DNA of 64,000 nucleotides. It comes from Cyanidioschyzon merolae (lineage: Eukaryota). How positions within the stretch are numbered: the first letter of the stretch is position 1; each line of letters starts with the position of its first letter. This document shows positions 2,170 through 26,660 of this stretch, piece by piece. Under the pieces are notes generated by a model. The model was given only the letters and a program-made list of their open reading frames with translations, searched no databases and had not been told where the DNA came from. Location of the stretch: NCBI GenBank assembly GCA_000091205.1, contig AP006496.2. The stretch is one strand, 5' to 3'. The translations under genes and the position numbers were made by a program.

Positions 2170-2647
2170 AACACTCCATAGCGACGCGCAGCTTCACATG
2201 CTATGCACGTGTTCATGCTTCGAGTAAACTGGGACACCTTGCATGCGTCCTAGCGCCCTGACGCGGATTACCCTGTTTCACTCATTGCTCTCGGATTCAA
2301 GAGATGCATGGCAAAGGTGGATCAAGCAATTTGTCCTCAAGCGACCATTGAAAACGTGTCCGCGAACAGCGTTCCAGCCGCCAGAGGTCGGTGAACTTTC
2401 ACAAAAACCGCGTGAGCACCGAATCTTCTCGGTAAAGACTGTGAAGCTGGTGCTCGCACAGGATAACGGTTCCAGAGCCATGCCGCTCGCGAGCGCAGCA
2501 CCTCGCTGAACGAAACTACATGCCTCCTGAGCTCTGGTTCCAGAGACTGGTGTGTTGACCCGCTTCCTCCAAAGGCTCAGAGAAACTGATCAAACATCCA
2601 CACACACACACACACCGGACCAGAGAGCCGCGGTCAAGTTGCGTTAC

Positions 2648-2956
2648 CTACGGTAGCTCACGCGACACGTCCGCCGCTCCTCGTTCGCGTACGGCCCTTG
2701 TCGTGGCCTCCACAACGTACGGAGGCGGCGGGTAGAGCTTGCTGATCGTGGTCTGTCTTCGCACCATTTCTAGGTCTTTTTGGGCCTTCTCGAGAAGCTG
2801 ATCGATTCGTTGGGGGTCCTGCAGGTTGCGGTTCTCTCGAAAGCCGGCTTGAACGCGGCGCTTGGCGTACGCACGAACGTTGGTGTCTGCGAAACCTTCA
2901 CACGCACGTAGAAGCGCTCGGTAGAGCTGCAAAACTTGGAAGCGTGTCTCCGGCAT
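2648..2956 (-). CDS. LYR-motif protein, LYRM4/ISD11-like (Fe-S cluster assembly accessory).
   Basis: VLQLYRALLRACEGFADTNVRAYAKRRVQAGFRENRNL...LEMVRRQ matches the ISD11 pattern VLDLYRAMLRESKHFPSKNRQYLLDKIRAEFRKNK...LEVIKRQ. Confidence 0.6.
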   Translation of the reverse strand: MPETRFQVLQLYRALLRACEGFADTNVRAYAKRRVQAGFRENRNLQDPQRIDQLLEKAQKDLEMVRRQTTISKLYPPPPYVVEATTRAVRERGAADVSRELP

Positions 2957-3207
2957 AGTAACGCAGTTGCAGAAATTGAGAAACCCCTTTCCAAACGACG
3001 GAACACGCGCCTGATAAGAAACGTCGTCGTTTCGCCTGGTGCAAGCGCAGAACCCTCAAACGCTGAACGCGCTCCCACGCGACCAGCTCCGCAAGAGTAG
3101 TGGACGCTGGCCGCAGCTGGATCACTCCTCGACGTAACGAAACAAGTAGGCAACTCGAACGGCTCACTCACAAGGAGGTACCTCCCTGAGGAACTTGTGC
3201 GGGCATC

Positions 3208-4165: not shown

Positions 4166-5911
4166 GTGGCCGCAACGCGCGCGCCGCACGTTTGGGGACG
4201 CAAGTTCCGCAGTTCCGCCGCGCTGTCCGCCAAAGCTTGGCCGCCATCGATCGCGCTCCAGTACGCAGCGGCGTGCGTTTCGAGTCTCTGCCGTTGTGCA
4301 CGGCGCGTAAGAGCGTTTGGTGCTTCGGGCTGCGTACGAACGGTGTATGACTCAAGTTTGAGGCCAATGTTCAGCGTTCTCTCCAGGAACACGATGCACC
4401 TACCTGTTTTTGAAAATGCCCCAGGTGCTGGCCGGGCTCGTTTTCTGCGCAAGCGCCTGTACAAAGTGCGAAACGTTATTTGCACCCGTCGGTGGCCGCT
4501 ATGGCTTTGCTCGTTCCTGCTGATAGGTTTGGTATTTGTGCTGGCTCCTCGTGTCATTCGCTCGGGAGCGAGCCTATGGGAAGCCCCAAACCTGCTGCAC
4601 ACGACTGTTGGTTGCCCGTTTATGTTTCTCGAATCGAACTTGACGCTGACGCTGAATCAGAGTCTAAAGGCGCCAAACGTTTCCAAGACCATGTTCCTGG
4701 CCGCGATCGAGGTGCGTGAGCAGGATCAAGGATATATTGCCGGTATTTTTCGTGTTCGCCATCCGTTTGCGCCGCACCGTACTTACAATCCGAGCAAGGA
4801 CGATTGGGACATATCCATGGTGGCCAACTCGACGCTTGCAGCTGTGAATTTTACTGCTAATCGCCTGGACCAGATCCAGGGCGGCTCTGCGCGTCAGCTC
4901 AGGCTCGGTTCGGAGCAAATGCATGCTGTTTATTCATACGGGCCAGAGGATCCACGGATTATTCGCTGCGGCATGCGGACCTTGGCGCTTTTCCATCAGC
5001 CGGACATAAGGATGTTCGCACCAATGCACCAACGCTTCCAGTATATCTTGGATATTGAGCGCAATGAACTCTACTGGATCGATGAGCCGCGAGCGCTCAC
5101 GCATGCTGGGCGGGACTCACCTCTGGTTGACAAGAATTACGTTCCACTCTGCGTGAATGGGGACGATTTGTACATCGTCACGAGCTTTGAACCGCTGCGT
5201 GTGCTCGGGCCTTGCACATTGAGGAAAGATCAGGTCTTTGCGCAAGGAGTACACGCTATTGCACACAGGGCACACTGTCCCGAGGCATTCAACGCTTTCA
5301 ATTCGAGCAACACCTTCTTCAGAGATTCTCAAATATTTCGCGGCTCGACGCAGTTCGAAGAGATCATCCCGGGTCGTGCGTACGTGTCACTCGTCCACGC
5401 GCGTCGCTGTGGTATCTACGATCGATGCAGCTACCAGGCTGCAATTGCCGTGCTCGTTCATCTGAGCTCCAGAGAATGGAAAGCAGTTTATTATCCGTCG
5501 CTGCTGAAGCTCTATGTTCCAGGCGGGCGTGAGAAAGAGCGACCTCGCTCGGGACGCCGACGCGAACATCGCTGCTTATTAGAACAGAGTCGACATGCAC
5601 ATCAACCTTATCGGCTCCATGTGAACCTAGTAGAGAATCCCGTGTCCATTATTCGATTTGAGAAAGATGAAAGCGCGCTTGTCAGCCTGAATGTGAATGA
5701 TGAGGAAACGCTAATCGTGAGGGTACCCGAGCTGTATCGATACGCAAGCTCGCTCGCCAGATGCATCCTAGAGGAACGCGCCGAACCACTGCTTCCACGC
5801 ATCAGCACGCTGTGGAAATGCAGCAATGGCGCCGTCTATGCCACCCAGGAAAACGCTGTGAATTCTTGGCACAAAATAGATCCGAGCACGGTCGCTCGAT
5901 TTCAAGGCTAG
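4166..5911 (+). CDS. Hypothetical type-II membrane protein with a lumenal domain carrying several N-glycosylation sequons. The start may be the internal Met at 4367 or 4394.
   Basis: 581-aa uninterrupted ORF. N-proximal TM anchor WPLWLCSFLLIGLVFVLAPRVI. Sequons NLT, NQS, NVS, NST, NFT. No recognisable catalytic motif. Confidence 0.45.
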   Translation: MAATRAPHVWGRKFRSSAALSAKAWPPSIALQYAAACVSSLCRCARRVRAFGASGCVRTVYDSSLRPMFSVLSRNTMHLPVFENAPGAGRARFLRKRLYKVRNVICTRRWPLWLCSFLLIGLVFVLAPRVIRSGASLWEAPNLLHTTVGCPFMFLESNLTLTLNQSLKAPNVSKTMFLAAIEVREQDQGYIAGIFRVRHPFAPHRTYNPSKDDWDISMVANSTLAAVNFTANRLDQIQGGSARQLRLGSEQMHAVYSYGPEDPRIIRCGMRTLALFHQPDIRMFAPMHQRFQYILDIERNELYWIDEPRALTHAGRDSPLVDKNYVPLCVNGDDLYIVTSFEPLRVLGPCTLRKDQVFAQGVHAIAHRAHCPEAFNAFNSSNTFFRDSQIFRGSTQFEEIIPGRAYVSLVHARRCGIYDRCSYQAAIAVLVHLSSREWKAVYYPSLLKLYVPGGREKERPRSGRRREHRCLLEQSRHAHQPYRLHVNLVENPVSIIRFEKDESALVSLNVNDEETLIVRVPELYRYASSLARCILEERAEPLLPRISTLWKCSNGAVYATQENAVNSWHKIDPSTVARFQG

Positions 5912-6864
5912 ACCTGGCATCGACCGTAGTGATGTACACGCATCGAAAATCATCTTTGAGATGCTTCTGGAAGCTTTCACGCTTCCAGGGCGAAAGATTC
6001 CAGTCTGAGCACGTAGCGGTCACTCGGGAATTTCCCCGCACGCATCATGCATGCGATATGTTGCACGCATGCAGCCGAATCGGTGACGTGTCCTGGCGGA
6101 CTGGTAATGATAACGTGCGCGCTTCTGAGGCGAGTTTCGTAGAACACAAGCTTGGCGATTCTTCGACGAACATTTCCAACATGTACGGATTCGCTGACAC
6201 TGGCTGCTTGGCGAGCTGCAGCATAGCGTTCTGCACGCTTTCTCGTGTCCTGCCAGTGCATCGGTGGACGGCGGAACCGCACTGCAGCGCTCCCAGAGTG
6301 AGATACGCACTTGCCCCAGCTTCGATACCCTGATTGGGTGTATCGCTTGTTTGAGCGTGACAATGCTCGCGATTGAGCCTGATACGGCGGTTCTCCTTCT
6401 AGTCGCACACTTCAGGCTTTCGATCTGCACGCATGATCGGTAGAGCGGTGAAATGCTCCGGATATAAGTACCACGAACAGCAGTGCCATTAGCGCCCCAG
6501 CATTGTCTCTTACCGCATCAGAGCAGTGCTCCGGTGCCTGCAACCATTCGCTTTACATCACGAATAGAGGGATACGCGGACATCCATGCATCTCGTTTCG
6601 ACGAGCGCTTTCCTCCGAGGCACGCTTCAGAGTAATCCAAACGTCGTCGATTCGTTCGCTGGTCGAATATGGCTTGGTTGACGCGCACCCGCCCCGAGCT
6701 GACACGAACGACTTTTGACCCCGTCCCAGCGAGCGCATTGCCGTTTAGAGACTGTCGCAAGTTGACTAGGGCGAAGCGGTGTATCGGCCGCGTCACCGGC
6801 CACCACGGCAACGGCTGGCCTGGCGATAGCCGCTCGGCACCTGCTCCCGAGACTTCACTGGAGA

Positions 6865-19191: not shown

Positions 19192-20304
19192 GTGGTTCAT
19201 CGTGTGCAGAGCTCTCCCATGGGTTTCCTAGCGCTTCAGGACAGGACAGAGGAGTTGCGCTCTGTCGCGCGACTGTTCGAGAGAGACTCGGCAGCGGGTA
19301 CCAGTGGAGCCACCGCTGCAGCACGTCCGGGGGACGCTGGGGCGGCGGCCCCGCAGACCTCGCTCACTCCCGAACGAACTGCAGAGCTGGCCGTAAAACA
19401 CTCACCCGGCTGGCAACGTAGCAACTTTGCCGTCTGTGCAGCGCAGATTGGCGGAAGGATTCACGAAACGTCCGCAAAACTCGCTCAACTGACTCGACTG
19501 GCGCGGCAGCGCTCTCTGTTCGATGACCATAGCGAGGAGATCGACCGATTAACCAGCCAAATCAAAAGCGATATCGGATATATTAATCATCAGCTCGACG
19601 AACTGCAACAGTTGGCTCGCAGAACTGCGGACCCGGGGAGCAACGGCGAACGACGCACAGGCGACAAGCGGACAGATGCTACTACTACTACTACAGGCAG
19701 CAACGCCCTAGCTCAACAGCATACTCGAATTATTGTGGATTCGTTGCGAGCGCGGCTTTTGAATGCGACGCAAACGTTTCAGTCAGTGCTGCAGGAGCGG
19801 TCAGCGACCTTACGTGTTCGCCCGGAACACAAGGCAGCAACACAGAAACTTCCCAGTGTGTCACACTCGATCTTCGATCTGAAGCCGAACGAGCTAGAGC
19901 GCGGCTCCAGCTTTCTAGATTTGGGTAGTGGCTCCCTCGGCGCATCCCAGCAGCAGCAGCAGCAGCAGCAGCTATGGTACCAGCCTCAGGAGCAACAGCT
20001 GGTGCATGCGCCACCAGCAGCATCTCTACGATACTACCAGCAACGAACAGATGCAGTTCAACGCGTGGAGGCAACGATTGTAGAGCTGGGCCAGATCTTC
20101 CACCAGCTGTCGCGAATGGTAGCCGAGCAAGGCGAGCTTGTTCAGCGCATCGACGTGAACATTGAGGACTCCCTGGCACACGTAGAAGGTGCGCATGGTC
20201 AACTGCTGCGTTATTTTGAGAGCCTGCGCTCGAATCGCGGTCTTATCCTCAAACTGTTCGGCGTTTTAAGTCTCTTTATTGTGCTGTGGGTATTGATTCT
20301 CTGA
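19192..20304 (+). CDS. Syntaxin-5 / Sed5-type Qa-SNARE (ER-Golgi t-SNARE). The start is possibly Met at 19219.
   Basis: N-terminal DRTxEL Sly1-binding-like motif (LQDRTEELRSV). SNARE motif IVELGQIFHQLSRMVAEQGELVQRIDVNIED...LLRYF matches Sed5 ITELGSIFQQLATMVQEQGEVIQRIDANVDD...LLKYF. C-terminal TM LFGVLSLFIVLWVLIL. Internal polyQ. Confidence 0.85.
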   Translation: MVHRVQSSPMGFLALQDRTEELRSVARLFERDSAAGTSGATAAARPGDAGAAAPQTSLTPERTAELAVKHSPGWQRSNFAVCAAQIGGRIHETSAKLAQLTRLARQRSLFDDHSEEIDRLTSQIKSDIGYINHQLDELQQLARRTADPGSNGERRTGDKRTDATTTTTGSNALAQQHTRIIVDSLRARLLNATQTFQSVLQERSATLRVRPEHKAATQKLPSVSHSIFDLKPNELERGSSFLDLGSGSLGASQQQQQQQQLWYQPQEQQLVHAPPAASLRYYQQRTDAVQRVEATIVELGQIFHQLSRMVAEQGELVQRIDVNIEDSLAHVEGAHGQLLRYFESLRSNRGLILKLFGVLSLFIVLWVLIL

Positions 20305-21973: not shown

Positions 21974-22633
21974 TTAGGTGATCGTCACTGGTGTCTCGAC
22001 GACGTTGTTCGCATAGGTCGTTTCCTTGAAAATGTGATACGCGTTGCATTCAAGACGCAGCGTGTAGTGACCTGAAGGAACGCCCGTGATGTCAATCCAC
22101 TGGCACGGCAGCGAGTCATCGTAGATATCGCACCAGCCGACGCTGATACCCTGGAATGTGCAGGTATGGACAGGCTCCGCAGGCACGAGCGCTGGGTTTC
22201 CAGTGTACTCAGGGAAACGAGCCAGATCCTCCATGCAGAAGCTCTCCTTCTTGCCACTCCGCACAAGGTTCCCTGCCGAATCCCAGATGGAATAGTTCAG
22301 CATGGGTTTGCGCGTAATGAACTGACCAGTGCACGTATCCCAGGTGTAAATATTGGGATGATCCGCCGGGTTGCCGACCACAAAATCATCGGGGCCGTTG
22401 TTACCGATCGCACCTGCAAGCTTCAGCAGCTTTCTCGGGCCAGTTCCAAGAACGCAGCCCATTTCAAACGCACAGTCATGTGGCGTGAATGACTCCGTCT
22501 TGATCATCAGACTACCTTGGAGAATCTTTAGGGAAGGCTCCAGGTCGAACTTCGCCTGAGCTCGCACCGAAGACGCCACCGCTGCAAGGCAGACAAGGCA
22601 TAGAGCAAAGAGCGTGCTAATACGTTTGTACAT
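21974..22633 (-). CDS. Secreted lysyl-oxidase-like (LOX catalytic-fold) protein that lacks the copper-binding His triad (219 aa).
   Basis: Signal peptide MYKRISTLFALCLVCLAAVASSVRA. CQWIDITGVPSGHYTLRL...TYANNVV matches LOX CQWIDITDVKPGNYILKV...DYTNNVV, and KKESFCMEDL matches HKASFCLEDT. The LOX WEWHSCHQHYH position is YTWDTCTGQFI, so all three His are lost. The start was chosen at the internal Met of ORF 21974-23254. Confidence 0.7.
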   Translation of the reverse strand: MYKRISTLFALCLVCLAAVASSVRAQAKFDLEPSLKILQGSLMIKTESFTPHDCAFEMGCVLGTGPRKLLKLAGAIGNNGPDDFVVGNPADHPNIYTWDTCTGQFITRKPMLNYSIWDSAGNLVRSGKKESFCMEDLARFPEYTGNPALVPAEPVHTCTFQGISVGWCDIYDDSLPCQWIDITGVPSGHYTLRLECNAYHIFKETTYANNVVETPVTIT

Positions 22634-23989
22634 GGCTAGTGGACCTATTCCGCTATTAAGGGTAAATGCCCACAATCGCTGCTTTCGTGAAACCACCAAT
22701 TGCGATTGACATGATGTCGAAGATGAAAATCCGCTGCGATGCCATGGCGCACCGATCGAGCGATGGCAGAATCGGCACTTCGAGCCGACGCGCGCAGGGC
22801 CACCCGCGGGCCACATCCAAATTTGGGCATCGTCGGCGCTGTGCGCGCACACGCATGCATCTCGCGCTACCAAATTGGTATTTGCGTTGCGAGCGCGTCG
22901 ACACGCAGACCTGCGATCCTCGATGGCGCGCGCCTGCTGCGCGGCAGTCGCCAATTGGACGGGGCGTGCAGGCCTGCGATCGCCTGGCGACGGCCGCTCG
23001 CCGCGCCGCAATCCCGTCAGCTGGTGAACGGAGCTGCGCTGGTGGCGGCGCGTCGCGTGCATTCGACGCCCCGGCACCAGTCGCTGCAGGGCCGCTTCCA
23101 AATGTGGTGGGCACGTCGTCGTCGATCTGCGCTGTGTGGTGGATAGATTTGGAAGGTGAGCGTGTGGCATCAAAACCTGTAGGTACTGTTCTTGAATTGC
23201 GCTCTTTTTTTCCGAACCTTTTTTAGATGTACCGCTTACATGTTTGAAGTGCATCAGTACTGGCTTGGGGATTCATACATAGCTTGAAGACGCTCCGAAG
23301 GGTTTTCGGTGTTGCTCGTTCGACGCGTTGGCGCTTGAGCTCGATACCGCATCGGACTGAAGATGATTCGCGACGTATTCGAAAAATGCTTCGTAAAATA
23401 TCGGATATCGTGATCAAATTCGTACGTATAAGTTTCCGTTCTTTTCCTTTACTTGCGAGTGGCATGCTTAAATCACGCGTTCTTGAAGCAATCGATCTCT
23501 CTGTTCGATGGGCGTCGTATTTCCGGAGCGATTTGCGCAGCAGGATTGACACGAGGGGAGAAATTTTTTACGTCCTTCGTTGAAGACGAGTTCACGAGCG
23601 CATGACGAAAAGGCGAGTGAACTCGCCACCTCAAATAATGGATTCCGTTCGATAGCCAAATCGTCTTTCTTTAAGGCTACCGACGAAATGGAGCTCCTCA
23701 CCAGCAGCATGATAGCTCTCCCGGGCAATGCGCTCAGCAGATTCTTTCTCCTCTGTTTGCGTAGGAGAGATTCTTGGACTCGAGTCAAGCCAGCGATCGC
23801 GCCCACTGGGGAGCGCGTTACTGCTTTTCACGAAGCGAGCGTACAGGGATCAAGAGATCTCGACTTGTTTCGCAGCCTTGAATTCCCATGCAGTGCAAAA
23901 GTTCATCATGAATAGCATCGCGTTCCACAAGACTCCGAGCGAATGGGAAAGCGTGCGCTTCCACTTCCAGCGTACAGCGTAATCGTCGA

Positions 23990-24410: not shown

Positions 24411-25685
24411 AGCAGTGAAAGAAAAAGCCCGGATAGGTCAGTATTCCAGACACTGAAACGAGATCCAATCGATAAATTGTATGCCCGCGTTACTGGACCC
24501 TTTCCGACGCAGTCTGAATTCGGTGCCTTAATCGCTGGTTATCGTGCCACTGCGTATACGTTTCGACGAAGAAGAGGCTCCCCTGCGGAGAATTGAGCAA
24601 GGGTCCATGTTCGGCGCAGCGCAGTGCTCGATATGGCAGACCGCGGATTACCAGGGCGCATCGTCCGCGTCAGACACACTAGACACGAGTCGGTGCGCAC
24701 AGCATCCATTGTCAGTCTGCGAACACACGCAAAACCAGGTGCTTGGTCGGTGTCTGAGCACCCGCATTCGTGGTAGCGAGAAACCGATTGCCTGCGAGGT
24801 GCCTCGTATTCGATAACATGATGGTCGCTAGAATAGCCGCAGATTTGATGGTGCTTGTGTACGGGCCACCAGCGGCAAGTATCAACAACCTTACGAATGC
24901 GGTACTCCGTCGACAGTGCACACCAAGAGGACTCAGGCGCGGCGACCAGTGCATGCCGCGCTCAGGACCCGACGCTGGCGCACCACGAACCGGTCGGATG
25001 TGCGTCTATGCTTCAAGCGGCAACGGCACCTGCTCTGTCCATGCTTCGTACTGTACCATCCAATAGAGCAAAGGAGCGCCCTACCCGAAACGAAGCACGC
25101 TCGAGTCCCCGTTCATTGATGGCAAGCACTCGAGCGTGCTCCGCTTTCGCGAGCGAACCATAAAGCGCATTCTCGCCGTTTCGCCACTGGTCGTCTGCGG
25201 AACATAGCGCCGAGGTTTGTGACAGCGGGTATGTCGTGCAACCGTGGCCTCTCATCGAGCTCCAATGCCGGATCGGGTGCACTGAACGCTGCGTCACATC
25301 TGACGAGCCAATGCCGCAGCGATGCAGCACTAGAGGCCTTACGAGGCCGGCACTGTACCTCGACTCACATATGAGGATACACTTGCGGCCCGGGAAGCAA
25401 GGATCCGAGCGTATTCCTCCTGAATCAACGCTGTGTTCCCCGCGAACGCTCTTACGGAAGCCGCTCTACGAGGACACTGAGCCCGCGTTCTCGTGGGTAC
25501 GCGAAGCGCACCAGGGAAGTGCTTTGCTCACAGGCGCCGGTTACAGTGCAGTCGTGCGGCACGCCCCGACATCGCCATATACTGGCCTCACTGGAGTACG
25601 CCAGGAACGCGTGTGCAAGCCGCGGTTCTCGGAAAAACCCCAGCCGGACGCTCCCACAGCACTTGCCGTGGTGCTCCGGCAACTT

Positions 25686-25937
25686 TCACCCCGAGTCTCG
25701 AAAAACCGCGACTCTTTTGATCTCGTTGCGGAGCACGTGCTCGGCCTCTTGGACTTGGGCCAGTGCCTCCGCTGCTTCCAGCGGCTGCTGAACTCGGGGT
25801 CTGGTCTCAAACTCGTGACGAACAAGTCTCGCAGCTGCACGCAACGTGCGCCTGTCGTCACCAAAGGCAACTCGACAAGCACGCAGCAAGCGTCGGTACG
25901 CAGTGGGTGCACTCCATTCGCTCAGAGCGCCAGCCAT
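25686..25937 (-). CDS. LYR-motif (Complex1_LYR family) small protein, 83 aa.
   Basis: AYRRLLRACRVAFGDDRRTLRAAARLVRHEF fits the L-Y-R...F...R..F signature of LYRM proteins (SDHAF1/LYRM7-like). Confidence 0.4.
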   Translation of the reverse strand: MAGALSEWSAPTAYRRLLRACRVAFGDDRRTLRAAARLVRHEFETRPRVQQPLEAAEALAQVQEAEHVLRNEIKRVAVFRDSG

Positions 25938-26062
25938 GGTTACGCCCCAGTCCGCTCGGGTACGTCGACTGTTGAAGAAGGTTCACTGAGGCGCTCGCGT
26001 ATGCTGCGCGTTGTGTCAGAGTTCCCAGCTGCACTGGCGTACGGGGTGTTTGCCCAGACCGT

Positions 26063-26660
26063 CAGTGAAACAGCAAGGTTTCGCAGCTGTAGGGTAATTT
26101 AATACCCACTCGCAGACGCTTCTCAGTCTTTTTCGACCGGCCTACCGCTATTGGGTTCAGCTTCTGCTTGCACACGACGGGCACGACAGCGTGCGCCACA
26201 CAGTTGGACCGTGTGAGCTCCGCGGGGCTCGGCTTCGGCACTAGCCATCTTCTGATAATCATGGCGATGTTCAAGTCTCGGTTTACGAACTCCATGCGTT
26301 TCTTGAGGCTGGTTGATCTCACCAATGCATGTAGTCGTCTATTTCGCACCCTCTATGCCACTTCAGTCGCGTCAGCGTCCCGTCGGGTAAACACCTTTTC
26401 TCGCCTGTCTCTCCTCATCTTCGTGGTCACTAGCTCTTCTTCGCTTGATGGTCAGCGAGCAGAGGATTCTTTTTCGTTTTGTTTTGAGGCACCCGCTGAT
26501 CAGCGTCCCCCAGGATTCCCGACTTGCACATCGATACCTAGCCATCAAATTTTGGATTCCTTCAGATGAACGCACCTCGGGCGCGTCGTCTATAAACCGC
26601 GAAGAAGCATTTGAAGACATGCATCCACATATGAAATACCATTGAGGTGAAAGATGACAA
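26063..26660 (+). repeat. Solo TIR-like copy (C) of the transposon family. The terminus begins cagtgaaac.
   Basis: Aligns at ~75% to 217-780 throughout. Begins gtCAGTGAAACagc at 26061. Confidence 0.6.

Follow-up and report, generated by a model that had tools for sequence, protein, structure and literature searches.

A lysyl oxidase-like protein of the red alga Cyanidioschyzon merolae that lacks the copper-binding histidines

The LOX-like gene and its product

We analyzed a 64-kb stretch of DNA (64,000 nucleotides; the window) from the red alga Cyanidioschyzon (Cz.) merolae 10D. The window contains a gene for a protein with the lysyl oxidase (LOX) fold in which all of the copper-ligand histidines are replaced, and in which the lysine and tyrosine that give rise to the lysine tyrosylquinone (LTQ) cofactor are kept. 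The coding sequence lies at 21974..22633 on the minus strand, as do all of the features of the gene described below. It is intron-less and has 219 codons, with the stop codon at 21974-21976. The translation begins MYKRISTLFALCLVCLAAVASSVRAQAKFDLEPS and ends NNVVETPVTIT. This sequence is the 3' part of a longer open reading frame (ORF; 21974-23254) whose 426-amino-acid product is identical at 426/426 positions to BAM81252.1/XP_005537288.1, annotated as 'similar to lysyl oxidase'. The gene is CMN144C of Cz. merolae 10D, the name used for the C. merolae LOXL gene by Tomo et al. 2018 (PMC6508830). Present in a single copy, it is orthologous to the cyanidiophycean red-algal 'lysyl oxidase-like protein' (LOXL). 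We found only one LOX copy within the window, in agreement with the one copy published for Cz. merolae. A start at 22633 is better supported than the annotated upstream ATG, and it fits the cDNA and mass spectrometry data available for an orthologue.

The 219-residue product has the layout of a secreted protein. Residues 1-25 (MYKRISTLFALCLVCLAAVASSVRA; 22559..22633) comprise the n-, h- and c-regions of a signal peptide as read from the sequence: MYKR, a 16-residue hydrophobic core, and SSVRA|Q, with predicted cleavage before Gln26. In the AlphaFold2 (AF2) model this region is a low-confidence helix (residues 8-22). The orthologue is a 34-kDa protein that Tomo et al. 2018 (PMC6508830) purified after its secretion at pH 6 by 'Cyanidium caldarium RK-1', a strain now assigned to Cyanidiococcus (Cc.) yangmingshanensis RK-1. 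Its cDNA, obtained by rapid amplification of cDNA ends (RACE), encodes 219 amino acids. In the same work (PMC6508830), LC-MS/MS showed cleavage at Ala25|Gln26 and an N-terminal pyroglutamate, and MS/MS showed a high-mannose N-glycan on Asn113 of PMLNYSIWDSAGNLVRSGK. The stretch around the cleavage site, SSVRAQAKFDLEPS, is identical between the window protein and the RK-1 orthologue, and so is the glycosylated peptide that holds the sequon Asn113-Tyr-Ser (22289..22297). By identity with this 94%-identical orthologue, the Cz. merolae protein is likely also cleaved at Ala25|Gln26 and likely carries a high-mannose glycan on Asn113. The sequon is kept as NFS in both copies of Cyanidium (Cd.) caldarium.

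The mature protein, residues 26-219 (194 amino acids; 21977..22558), belongs to the LOX family. It matched the Pfam profile PF01186 (Lysyl_oxidase) with an E value of 9e-25 and 87.9 bits (gathering cutoff, 20.4 bits); positions 50-191 of the 204 in the profile aligned to residues 65-215. Among solved structures, human LOXL2 (5ze3) was the best match by sequence and the only one that the protein resembled (E 6e-17; HMMER). The AF2 model, built on an alignment of 63 sequences, had a mean predicted local distance difference test score (pLDDT) of 92.2 and a predicted TM-score (pTM) of 0.84, with pLDDT at least 95 over residues 30-219. In a Foldseek search of the PDB with this model, the top matches were chains A and B of 5ze3, the LOXL2 catalytic domain (E 6e-13 to ~1e-12; TM-score 0.68-0.71), and the next matches had E values of only 3e-3 or higher. 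Based on the profile match and the model, the window protein is a genuine LOX-fold domain. The mature protein is predicted to be a single compact LOX beta-sandwich, stabilized by disulfides, of the bacterial single-domain type.

Other features of the LOX domain may be kept in part. Six cysteines (Cys54, 60, 101, 133, 158 and 177) are conserved and, by alignment, would correspond to three of the LOXL2 bridges; Tomo et al. 2018 (PMC6508830) had counted 6 of the 10 animal cysteines. The structural Ca2+ site of LOXL2 consists of Asp549, Leu550, Glu722, Asp724, Asn727 and Asn728. Of its equivalents, Glu204, Asn209 and Asn210 are kept and Asp30-Leu31 lies within an N-terminal DL motif; the equivalent of Asp724 is Thr206, or Asn in one Cyanidium copy.

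The missing copper site and the retained cofactor residues

The copper-binding motif of LOXL2, W-H-D-C-H626-R-H628-Y-H630, aligned to W98-D-T-C101-T102-G-Q104-F-I106. In place of His626, His628 and His630 the window protein has Thr102, Gln104 and Ile106, and Cys101 is kept. With the triad gone, it lacks one defining feature of the copper- and LTQ-dependent lysyl oxidases as a functional class. The remnant of the motif, YTWDTCTGQFI (residues 96-106), is encoded at 22316..22348, as determined by HMMER against 5ze3 and by checking the reverse complement by hand. The two residues that are precursors of LTQ are both present in alignments to 5ze3 and the family hidden Markov model (HMM). Lys653 of LOXL2 (GHKASFC) aligned to Lys129 (GKKESFC; 22247..22249), which is kept in all of the cyanidiophycean sequences, and Tyr689, which is also a metal ligand, aligned to Tyr171 (CDIYDD; 22121..22123).

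The register of the alignment is secure. It was identical by HMMER against LOXL2 and by a family HMM that we built. The mature protein has only five histidines (52, 92, 156, 189 and 199), and H-x-H-x-H does not occur in the protein. An alternative register that restores the triad is ruled out, as there is only one histidine between residues 53 and 155. Because of a one-residue indel after the motif, the third histidine position can be read as Ile106 or Thr107, and it is not histidine in either case. These results bear on a preliminary description of this DNA, which had proposed a LOX-family protein with a signal peptide, the Lys and Tyr positions kept and every copper-ligand His replaced, in an alga-like genome, and had called for a profile alignment to confirm the register. 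All of this is borne out by the profile and structure matches, by the signal peptide with cleavage shown in the orthologue, and by the identity and conserved gene order of the red alga. The description had also called the alignment with the LOX core 'gap-free', which was incorrect: there are small gaps relative to LOXL2 and, relative to bacterial-type homologues, a one-residue insertion after the motif and a short insertion around residues 149-156.

The three histidines stand out among the conserved positions of the family. They are present at the three motif columns in at least 90% of the 63 aligned sequences. We also compared the cyanidialean proteins to 242 non-algal canonical domains, chosen by having the three His columns plus the Lys and Tyr columns. 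Of the positions conserved at 75% or more in these domains, 32/42 were identical in all four distinct cyanidialean sequences. The remaining differences, other than those at the histidines, were mostly conservative (L/M, F/L, F/Y, Y/F and L/I); the exceptions were Glu to Met or Phe, and Leu to Ala in one Cyanidium copy. When the threshold was raised to 95%, the three histidines were the only positions that differed, and all others were kept.

Work on LOXL2 indicates what this loss would mean. The zinc or copper ligands of LOXL2 are His626, His628, His630 and Tyr689, and mutants of its copper site show no staining for quinone, nor can they be activated (PMC5899467). Based on the behavior of these mutants, it is very probable that the window protein is unable to bind copper at the canonical site or to form LTQ by canonical self-processing.

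The loss of the histidines was known before this work. In a survey of LOX across life, Grau-Bové et al. 2015 (PMC4448552) stated that the C. merolae LOX "lacks the histidine core", and Tomo et al. 2018 (PMC6508830) noted that the copper site is missing from the orthologue, assuming that LTQ is present. The gene, its LOX homology, the secretion of the orthologue and the missing copper histidines are thus already in print (2015, 2018 and 2026), and the novelty implied by the preliminary description does not hold. What is new here is the strength of selection on the protein (dN/dS ~0.02), a sister locus that carries both types of paralogue, the recurrence of the histidine loss, the over-extension of two public gene models, and the finding that the three histidines are the only changes among the most conserved positions of the family.

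Selection, gene neighborhood and origin of the loss

We found that the His-less protein is under strong purifying selection. Between Cz. merolae and Cc. yangmingshanensis, the proportion of synonymous differences (pS) was 0.71, which is saturated, and the proportion of nonsynonymous differences (pN) was 0.040, giving a ratio of nonsynonymous to synonymous substitution (dN/dS) of ~0.02. Relative to the Cd. caldarium copies, dN/dS was 0.11-0.15. A review places the split between Cyanidiales and Cyanidioschyzonales at ~500 Ma. Taken together, the low dN/dS and the age of this split indicate that strong selection has maintained the His-less protein over a very long period.

The two LOX genes of Cd. 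caldarium are in tandem (L001 10001-11932, JANCYW010000016). Between them dN/dS was ~0.33 and dS 0.65; these paralogues are more relaxed than the between-genus pairs, which is what a duplication would lead one to expect. TGQFI, the Lys and the Tyr are present in both.

The neighborhood of the LOX gene is conserved. Its neighbors are, in order, Pkinase, RHD3 GTPase, SNARE, LOX, adenylate kinase (ADK), RNB and CN_hydrolase, and the same gene order flanks the two tandem LOX genes of Cd. caldarium and the single gene of Cc. yangmingshanensis. This conserved order between eukaryotic genes indicates that LOX belongs to the nuclear genome of a cyanidiophycean red alga and is not a contaminant. The adjoining SNARE is of the syntaxin type (19192-20304, plus strand). 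It contains a poly-Gln tract. Divergence between genera is fast in the N-terminal half (43-65% identity), but the C-terminal SNARE and transmembrane part is highly conserved, so the syntaxin is usable as a synteny anchor. The interval between LOX and the adenylate kinase gene is ~5 kb in the window and contains an ORF of 288 amino acids without a Pfam match (25236-26102, plus strand); in Cd. caldarium the gap is only ~1.1 kb.

An exhaustive search yielded 3320 homologues at E values of 1e-3 or lower. The best single-domain relative (P0025; 43% identical) is encoded on a 6-kb eukaryotic contig (1-6048; 65% GC) from Logan SRR31152685, here called L004. This contig carries three tandem LOX paralogues, each with a signal peptide. 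Paralogue A (311-577 plus 739-1146) has an intron and paralogue B is at 2567-3175; both keep the histidine triad and read CHGH[YI]H. Paralogue C (4427 to 3516, minus strand) also has an intron. It has lost the triad and reads CLNRYT, yet retains the Lys and the Tyr. The introns of A and C are at the same position and have the form GTAAGT...CAG. The contig also carries an orthologue of the window SNARE (5239-5988, minus strand), a syntaxin with 45% identity to its Cz. merolae counterpart and 56% to that of Cd. caldarium.

We placed these sequences in a neighbor-joining (NJ) tree of 256 domains (181 columns, Kimura-corrected distances, 200 bootstraps). The cyanidialean clade was recovered in 200/200 bootstraps, the L004 trio in 191/200, and the two together in 171/200. 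Copies A and C of the trio grouped in 183/200. Since A and B of the sister trio keep the triad, the ancestor at this locus had the triad, and since C groups with the His-bearing A, the loss in C is independent of the cyanidialean loss. Based on these sequence comparisons, we infer that the triad was lost once in the cyanidialean lineage, before the split between Cyanidium and Cyanidioschyzon/Cyanidiococcus, from a His-bearing ancestor of bacterial type. A loss shared with a His-less bacterial donor was considered and rejected: no His-less bacterial lineage was sister to the algal clade in the NJ trees. The tree position of the L004 trio and the similarity of its syntaxin would fit an early-diverging cyanidiophyte such as Cavernulicolales, although this assignment is unproven.

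The preliminary description had also suggested a phylogeny to look for a horizontal origin. The idea itself had already been discussed in print (PMC4448552), and a 2026 paper in Plant Cell reported one LOX copy in Cz. merolae and Cc. yangmingshanensis, two in tandem in Cd. caldarium and none in Galdieria, and suggested horizontal acquisition.

Loss of the histidines is found in other LOX domains as well. In a survey of 319 LOX-like domains, 239 keep C-H-x-H-x-H and 228 have the triad together with the Lys and the Tyr; this sample consists of the best matches to a His-less query, so that the frequency of His-less domains in it is biased. The histidines, the Lys and the Tyr are all missing from 31/319, mostly N-terminal domains of bacterial two-domain proteins. 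Approximately 15 non-algal domains of the 319 have lost the histidines and kept the Lys and the Tyr. On an NJ tree made without the five diagnostic columns, this state requires ~13 changes, a count of independent losses that, like the deep branching, is approximate because the trees are NJ only.

Two groups among these homologues deserve mention. Many proteins among P0010-P0035 and others (metagenomic and mostly bacterial-type) have two tandem LOX-like domains. The C-terminal one is canonical; the N-terminal one is without the triad, the LTQ Lys and the Tyr, and has the look of a degenerate partner. We came across no earlier account of this arrangement. In a bacterial single-LOX clade (P0083, P0085, P0140, P0168 and P0187, one of them from a metagenome-assembled genome of Nannocystaceae), the histidines are lost and the Lys and Tyr kept, and the Cys of K-x-x-F-C is also replaced (GHKSAFA).

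It is possible, though we regard it as rather doubtful, that His-less LOX domains that keep the Lys and the Tyr form a recurrent, selectively maintained class with a copper-independent role. The class would have arisen once in the common ancestor of Cyanidiales and Cyanidioschyzonales, again in paralogue C of L004, and some ten further times in bacterial and metagenomic lineages. Two mechanisms may fit such a class: a quinone that forms without protein-bound copper, or reuse of the active-site surface as a module for binding lysine or protein. For the algae, which are acidophilic, loss of the histidines could have been adaptive: at an extracellular pH of 1-3, a site of three histidines cannot hold copper. 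If this is true, then a relative living at neutral pH would keep His-bearing copies.

Possible roles and comparison with known systems

The central question is biochemical: what is the role of a strongly conserved LOX fold that has no metal site? We favor, with a probability of roughly 0.55, a non-canonical role, probably other than that of an oxidase, in the wall that surrounds the diploid cells and is rich in protein. Without a canonical copper site there would be no canonical self-processing of LTQ, and the protein would fall outside the conventional copper amine oxidases. It might instead be kept as a component of binding or structural type associated with the wall, in which the former substrate-facing surface near Lys129 and Tyr171 is still in use. 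A binding or structural module in place of an enzyme is also what the preliminary description had suggested, and this is plausible. The 2026 Plant Cell paper reported that LOX is expressed mainly in the walled diploid of Cz. merolae, Cc. yangmingshanensis and Cd. caldarium, with proteome support in Cc. yangmingshanensis; the haploid Cz. merolae 10D is wall-less.

Several points weigh against this interpretation. Retention of Lys129, Tyr171, Asp169, Gln178 and their flanks over ~500 My is also expected if quinone chemistry is used. Conservation of the two cofactor residues is not statistically significant alone, as there are four distinct sequences and most columns are invariant. There may be an alternative metal site near Tyr171, with Asp99, Gln104, Asp169 and the clade-conserved His92 and His156 as candidate ligands. 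In the literature we found no cyanidiophycean LOXL for which metal content, a quinone cofactor or amine-oxidase activity has been reported. In addition, Tang and Klinman reportedly found (in J Biol Chem, 2001) that mature bovine LOX depleted of copper stays active. If this is right, copper would be required only for biogenesis of the cofactor.

The strongest competing explanation, less probable than a non-oxidase role but plausible enough to need attention, is that the protein works as a lysyl or amine oxidase that still depends on a quinone and cross-links wall proteins, as Tomo et al. (PMC6508830) proposed. LTQ would then be formed from Lys129 and Tyr171 in a non-canonical way, through a different or transient metal site or with the free Cu or Fe that abounds in acidic hot-spring water or in the secretory pathway, and once LTQ had formed, catalysis would proceed without bound copper. 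Such an enzyme would account for the retention of Lys129, Tyr171 and all of the other near-invariant residues of the active-site region, and for the strong purifying selection. It would also fit the recurrence of the same state elsewhere (independently in paralogue C of L004, and in the ~13 changes on the NJ tree), in contrast to the clearly degenerate N-terminal LOX-like domains, which lose the histidines, the Lys and the Tyr together. The wall is 50-55% protein and needs cross-linking. The activity that copper-depleted bovine LOX is said to have would be in keeping with such catalysis.

Other evidence argues against an oxidase. Copper-site mutants of LOXL2 form no LTQ (PMC5899467), and Thr, Gln and Ile are poor copper ligands. 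The independent loss in paralogue C has other replacements (Leu, Arg and Thr), so no new metal site common to the two losses is evident. The RK-1 protein runs at 34 kDa relative to a calculated 21.5 kDa, a difference that Tomo et al. (PMC6508830) credited in part to a cross-link, but the N-glycan accounts for this shift at least partly. Activity has never been reported in the literature. Finally, the chemistry itself would be difficult outside the cell. At an external pH of 1-3 the amines of lysine are fully protonated and Schiff-base chemistry is strongly disfavored.

The outcome would be informative for either of the two explanations. Canonical biogenesis of LTQ is copper-dependent, so a positive result for a quinone or for activity would reveal a new route to the cofactor. 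If there is no quinone or activity, then the protein is a LOX pseudoenzyme with a role in the protein-rich algal wall. The system is tractable, with diploid walled stages and gene targeting in both Cz. merolae and Cc. yangmingshanensis.

A different objection concerns the gene model. If the annotated 426-amino-acid protein were the real product, its N-terminal 207 residues would bury the hydrophobic segment, which is at odds with a simple secreted LOX domain. The frame is indeed open over the 207 codons upstream of the start (22634..23254, minus strand), and the Cc. yangmingshanensis model F1559_003043 (423 amino acids) has a similarly long open extension of 204 codons; both models are publicly annotated. 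However, the two extensions have no similarity to each other in DNA or protein, even though the downstream coding sequences are 94% identical. The 207-codon extension had no match in a Pfam scan, and it lies in a region of 60% GC that is stop-poor in several frames. There is no extension in the Cd. caldarium models (223 and 227 amino acids), in the RK-1 cDNA, or in KAK4531532.1 from Cc. yangmingshanensis (219 amino acids), and the RACE cDNA of the orthologue, together with its N-terminal pyroGlu26 peptide, defines a precursor of 219 amino acids. We therefore consider a 426-residue product very improbable. Most likely, both public models begin ~205 codons upstream of the real start, and the extension in Cz. 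merolae is most likely 5' UTR or promoter.

There is even less reason to think that the gene is a relic, acquired horizontally and decaying without a current function after loss of its catalytic site. The catalytic metal site is indeed gone and the laboratory strain 10D is a haploid without a cell wall, but a dN/dS of ~0.02 with saturated synonymous sites, an ORF that four lineages have kept intact and Cyanidium has duplicated, detection of the protein as secreted, and the published preferential expression in diploids, with proteome support, effectively refute it. Bacterial contamination or an assembly artefact, which might be suspected from the bacterial-type, metagenomic single-domain LOX proteins that are the closest non-algal relatives, is the least credible of all and is refuted by the eukaryotic neighbors in conserved order across three cyanidiophycean genomes, by a GC content of the gene that resembles its surroundings and by the spliceosomal introns at the sister locus.

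Of the known proteins, the closest to the window protein is the orthologue from RK-1 (BBC44082.1/LC314427), also of 219 amino acids, with 206/219 residues identical (94%) and only 6 differences in the 194-residue mature part. The cleavage region, the Asn113 peptide, TWDTCTGQFI, Lys129, Tyr171 and the genomic neighborhood are the same in the two. They differ in that secretion, pyroGlu26 and the glycan were shown in RK-1 and not in Cz. merolae. In addition, RK-1 cells are walled and released LOXL only at pH 6, whereas Cz. merolae 10D is a wall-less haploid.

Human LOXL2 (5ZE3) is more distant (~26% identity). It shares with the window protein the Pfam family, the beta-sandwich with its ES2 hairpin and the Lys and Tyr of LTQ. 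The cysteines that match the LOXL2 bridges Cys573-Cys625, Cys579-Cys695 and Cys657-Cys673 are kept in the window protein, as is the C-terminal E-x-x-x-x-N-N part of the Ca2+ site, in which the equivalent of Asp724 is Thr or Asn. In contrast to LOXL2, the window protein has no SRCR domains, no propeptide and lacks two of the five animal disulfides.

The single-domain LOX proteins of bacteria and archaea (myxobacterial, Kofleriaceae and HTU-LOX of Haloterrigena turkmenica) likewise consist of a signal peptide and one LOX domain of ~190 amino acids. Bacterial-type proteins of this kind are the closest non-algal sequences (35-45% identity), and they keep the C-H-x-H-x-H that the window protein lacks. 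The first histidine of the animal motif (WxWH) is already absent in the bacterial/archaeal group (PMC4448552). HTU-LOX is described as a lysyl oxidase (PMC6452851).

The L004 trio is ~40-45% identical to the window protein; two of its genes have an intron, and A and B keep the triad. Paralogue C is like the window protein in having the Lys and the Tyr and none of the three histidines, but the replacements differ. The degenerate N-terminal domains of the two-domain proteins (for example, P0010 to P0020) resemble the window protein in having the LOX fold without the triad, and domain 1 of P0010 belongs to the highest-scoring non-algal protein in the exhaustive search. These domains, however, also lack the Lys, the Tyr and most of GWxDxY, and are always found beside a canonical LOX domain. 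In contrast, the window protein stands alone and keeps all but the histidines.

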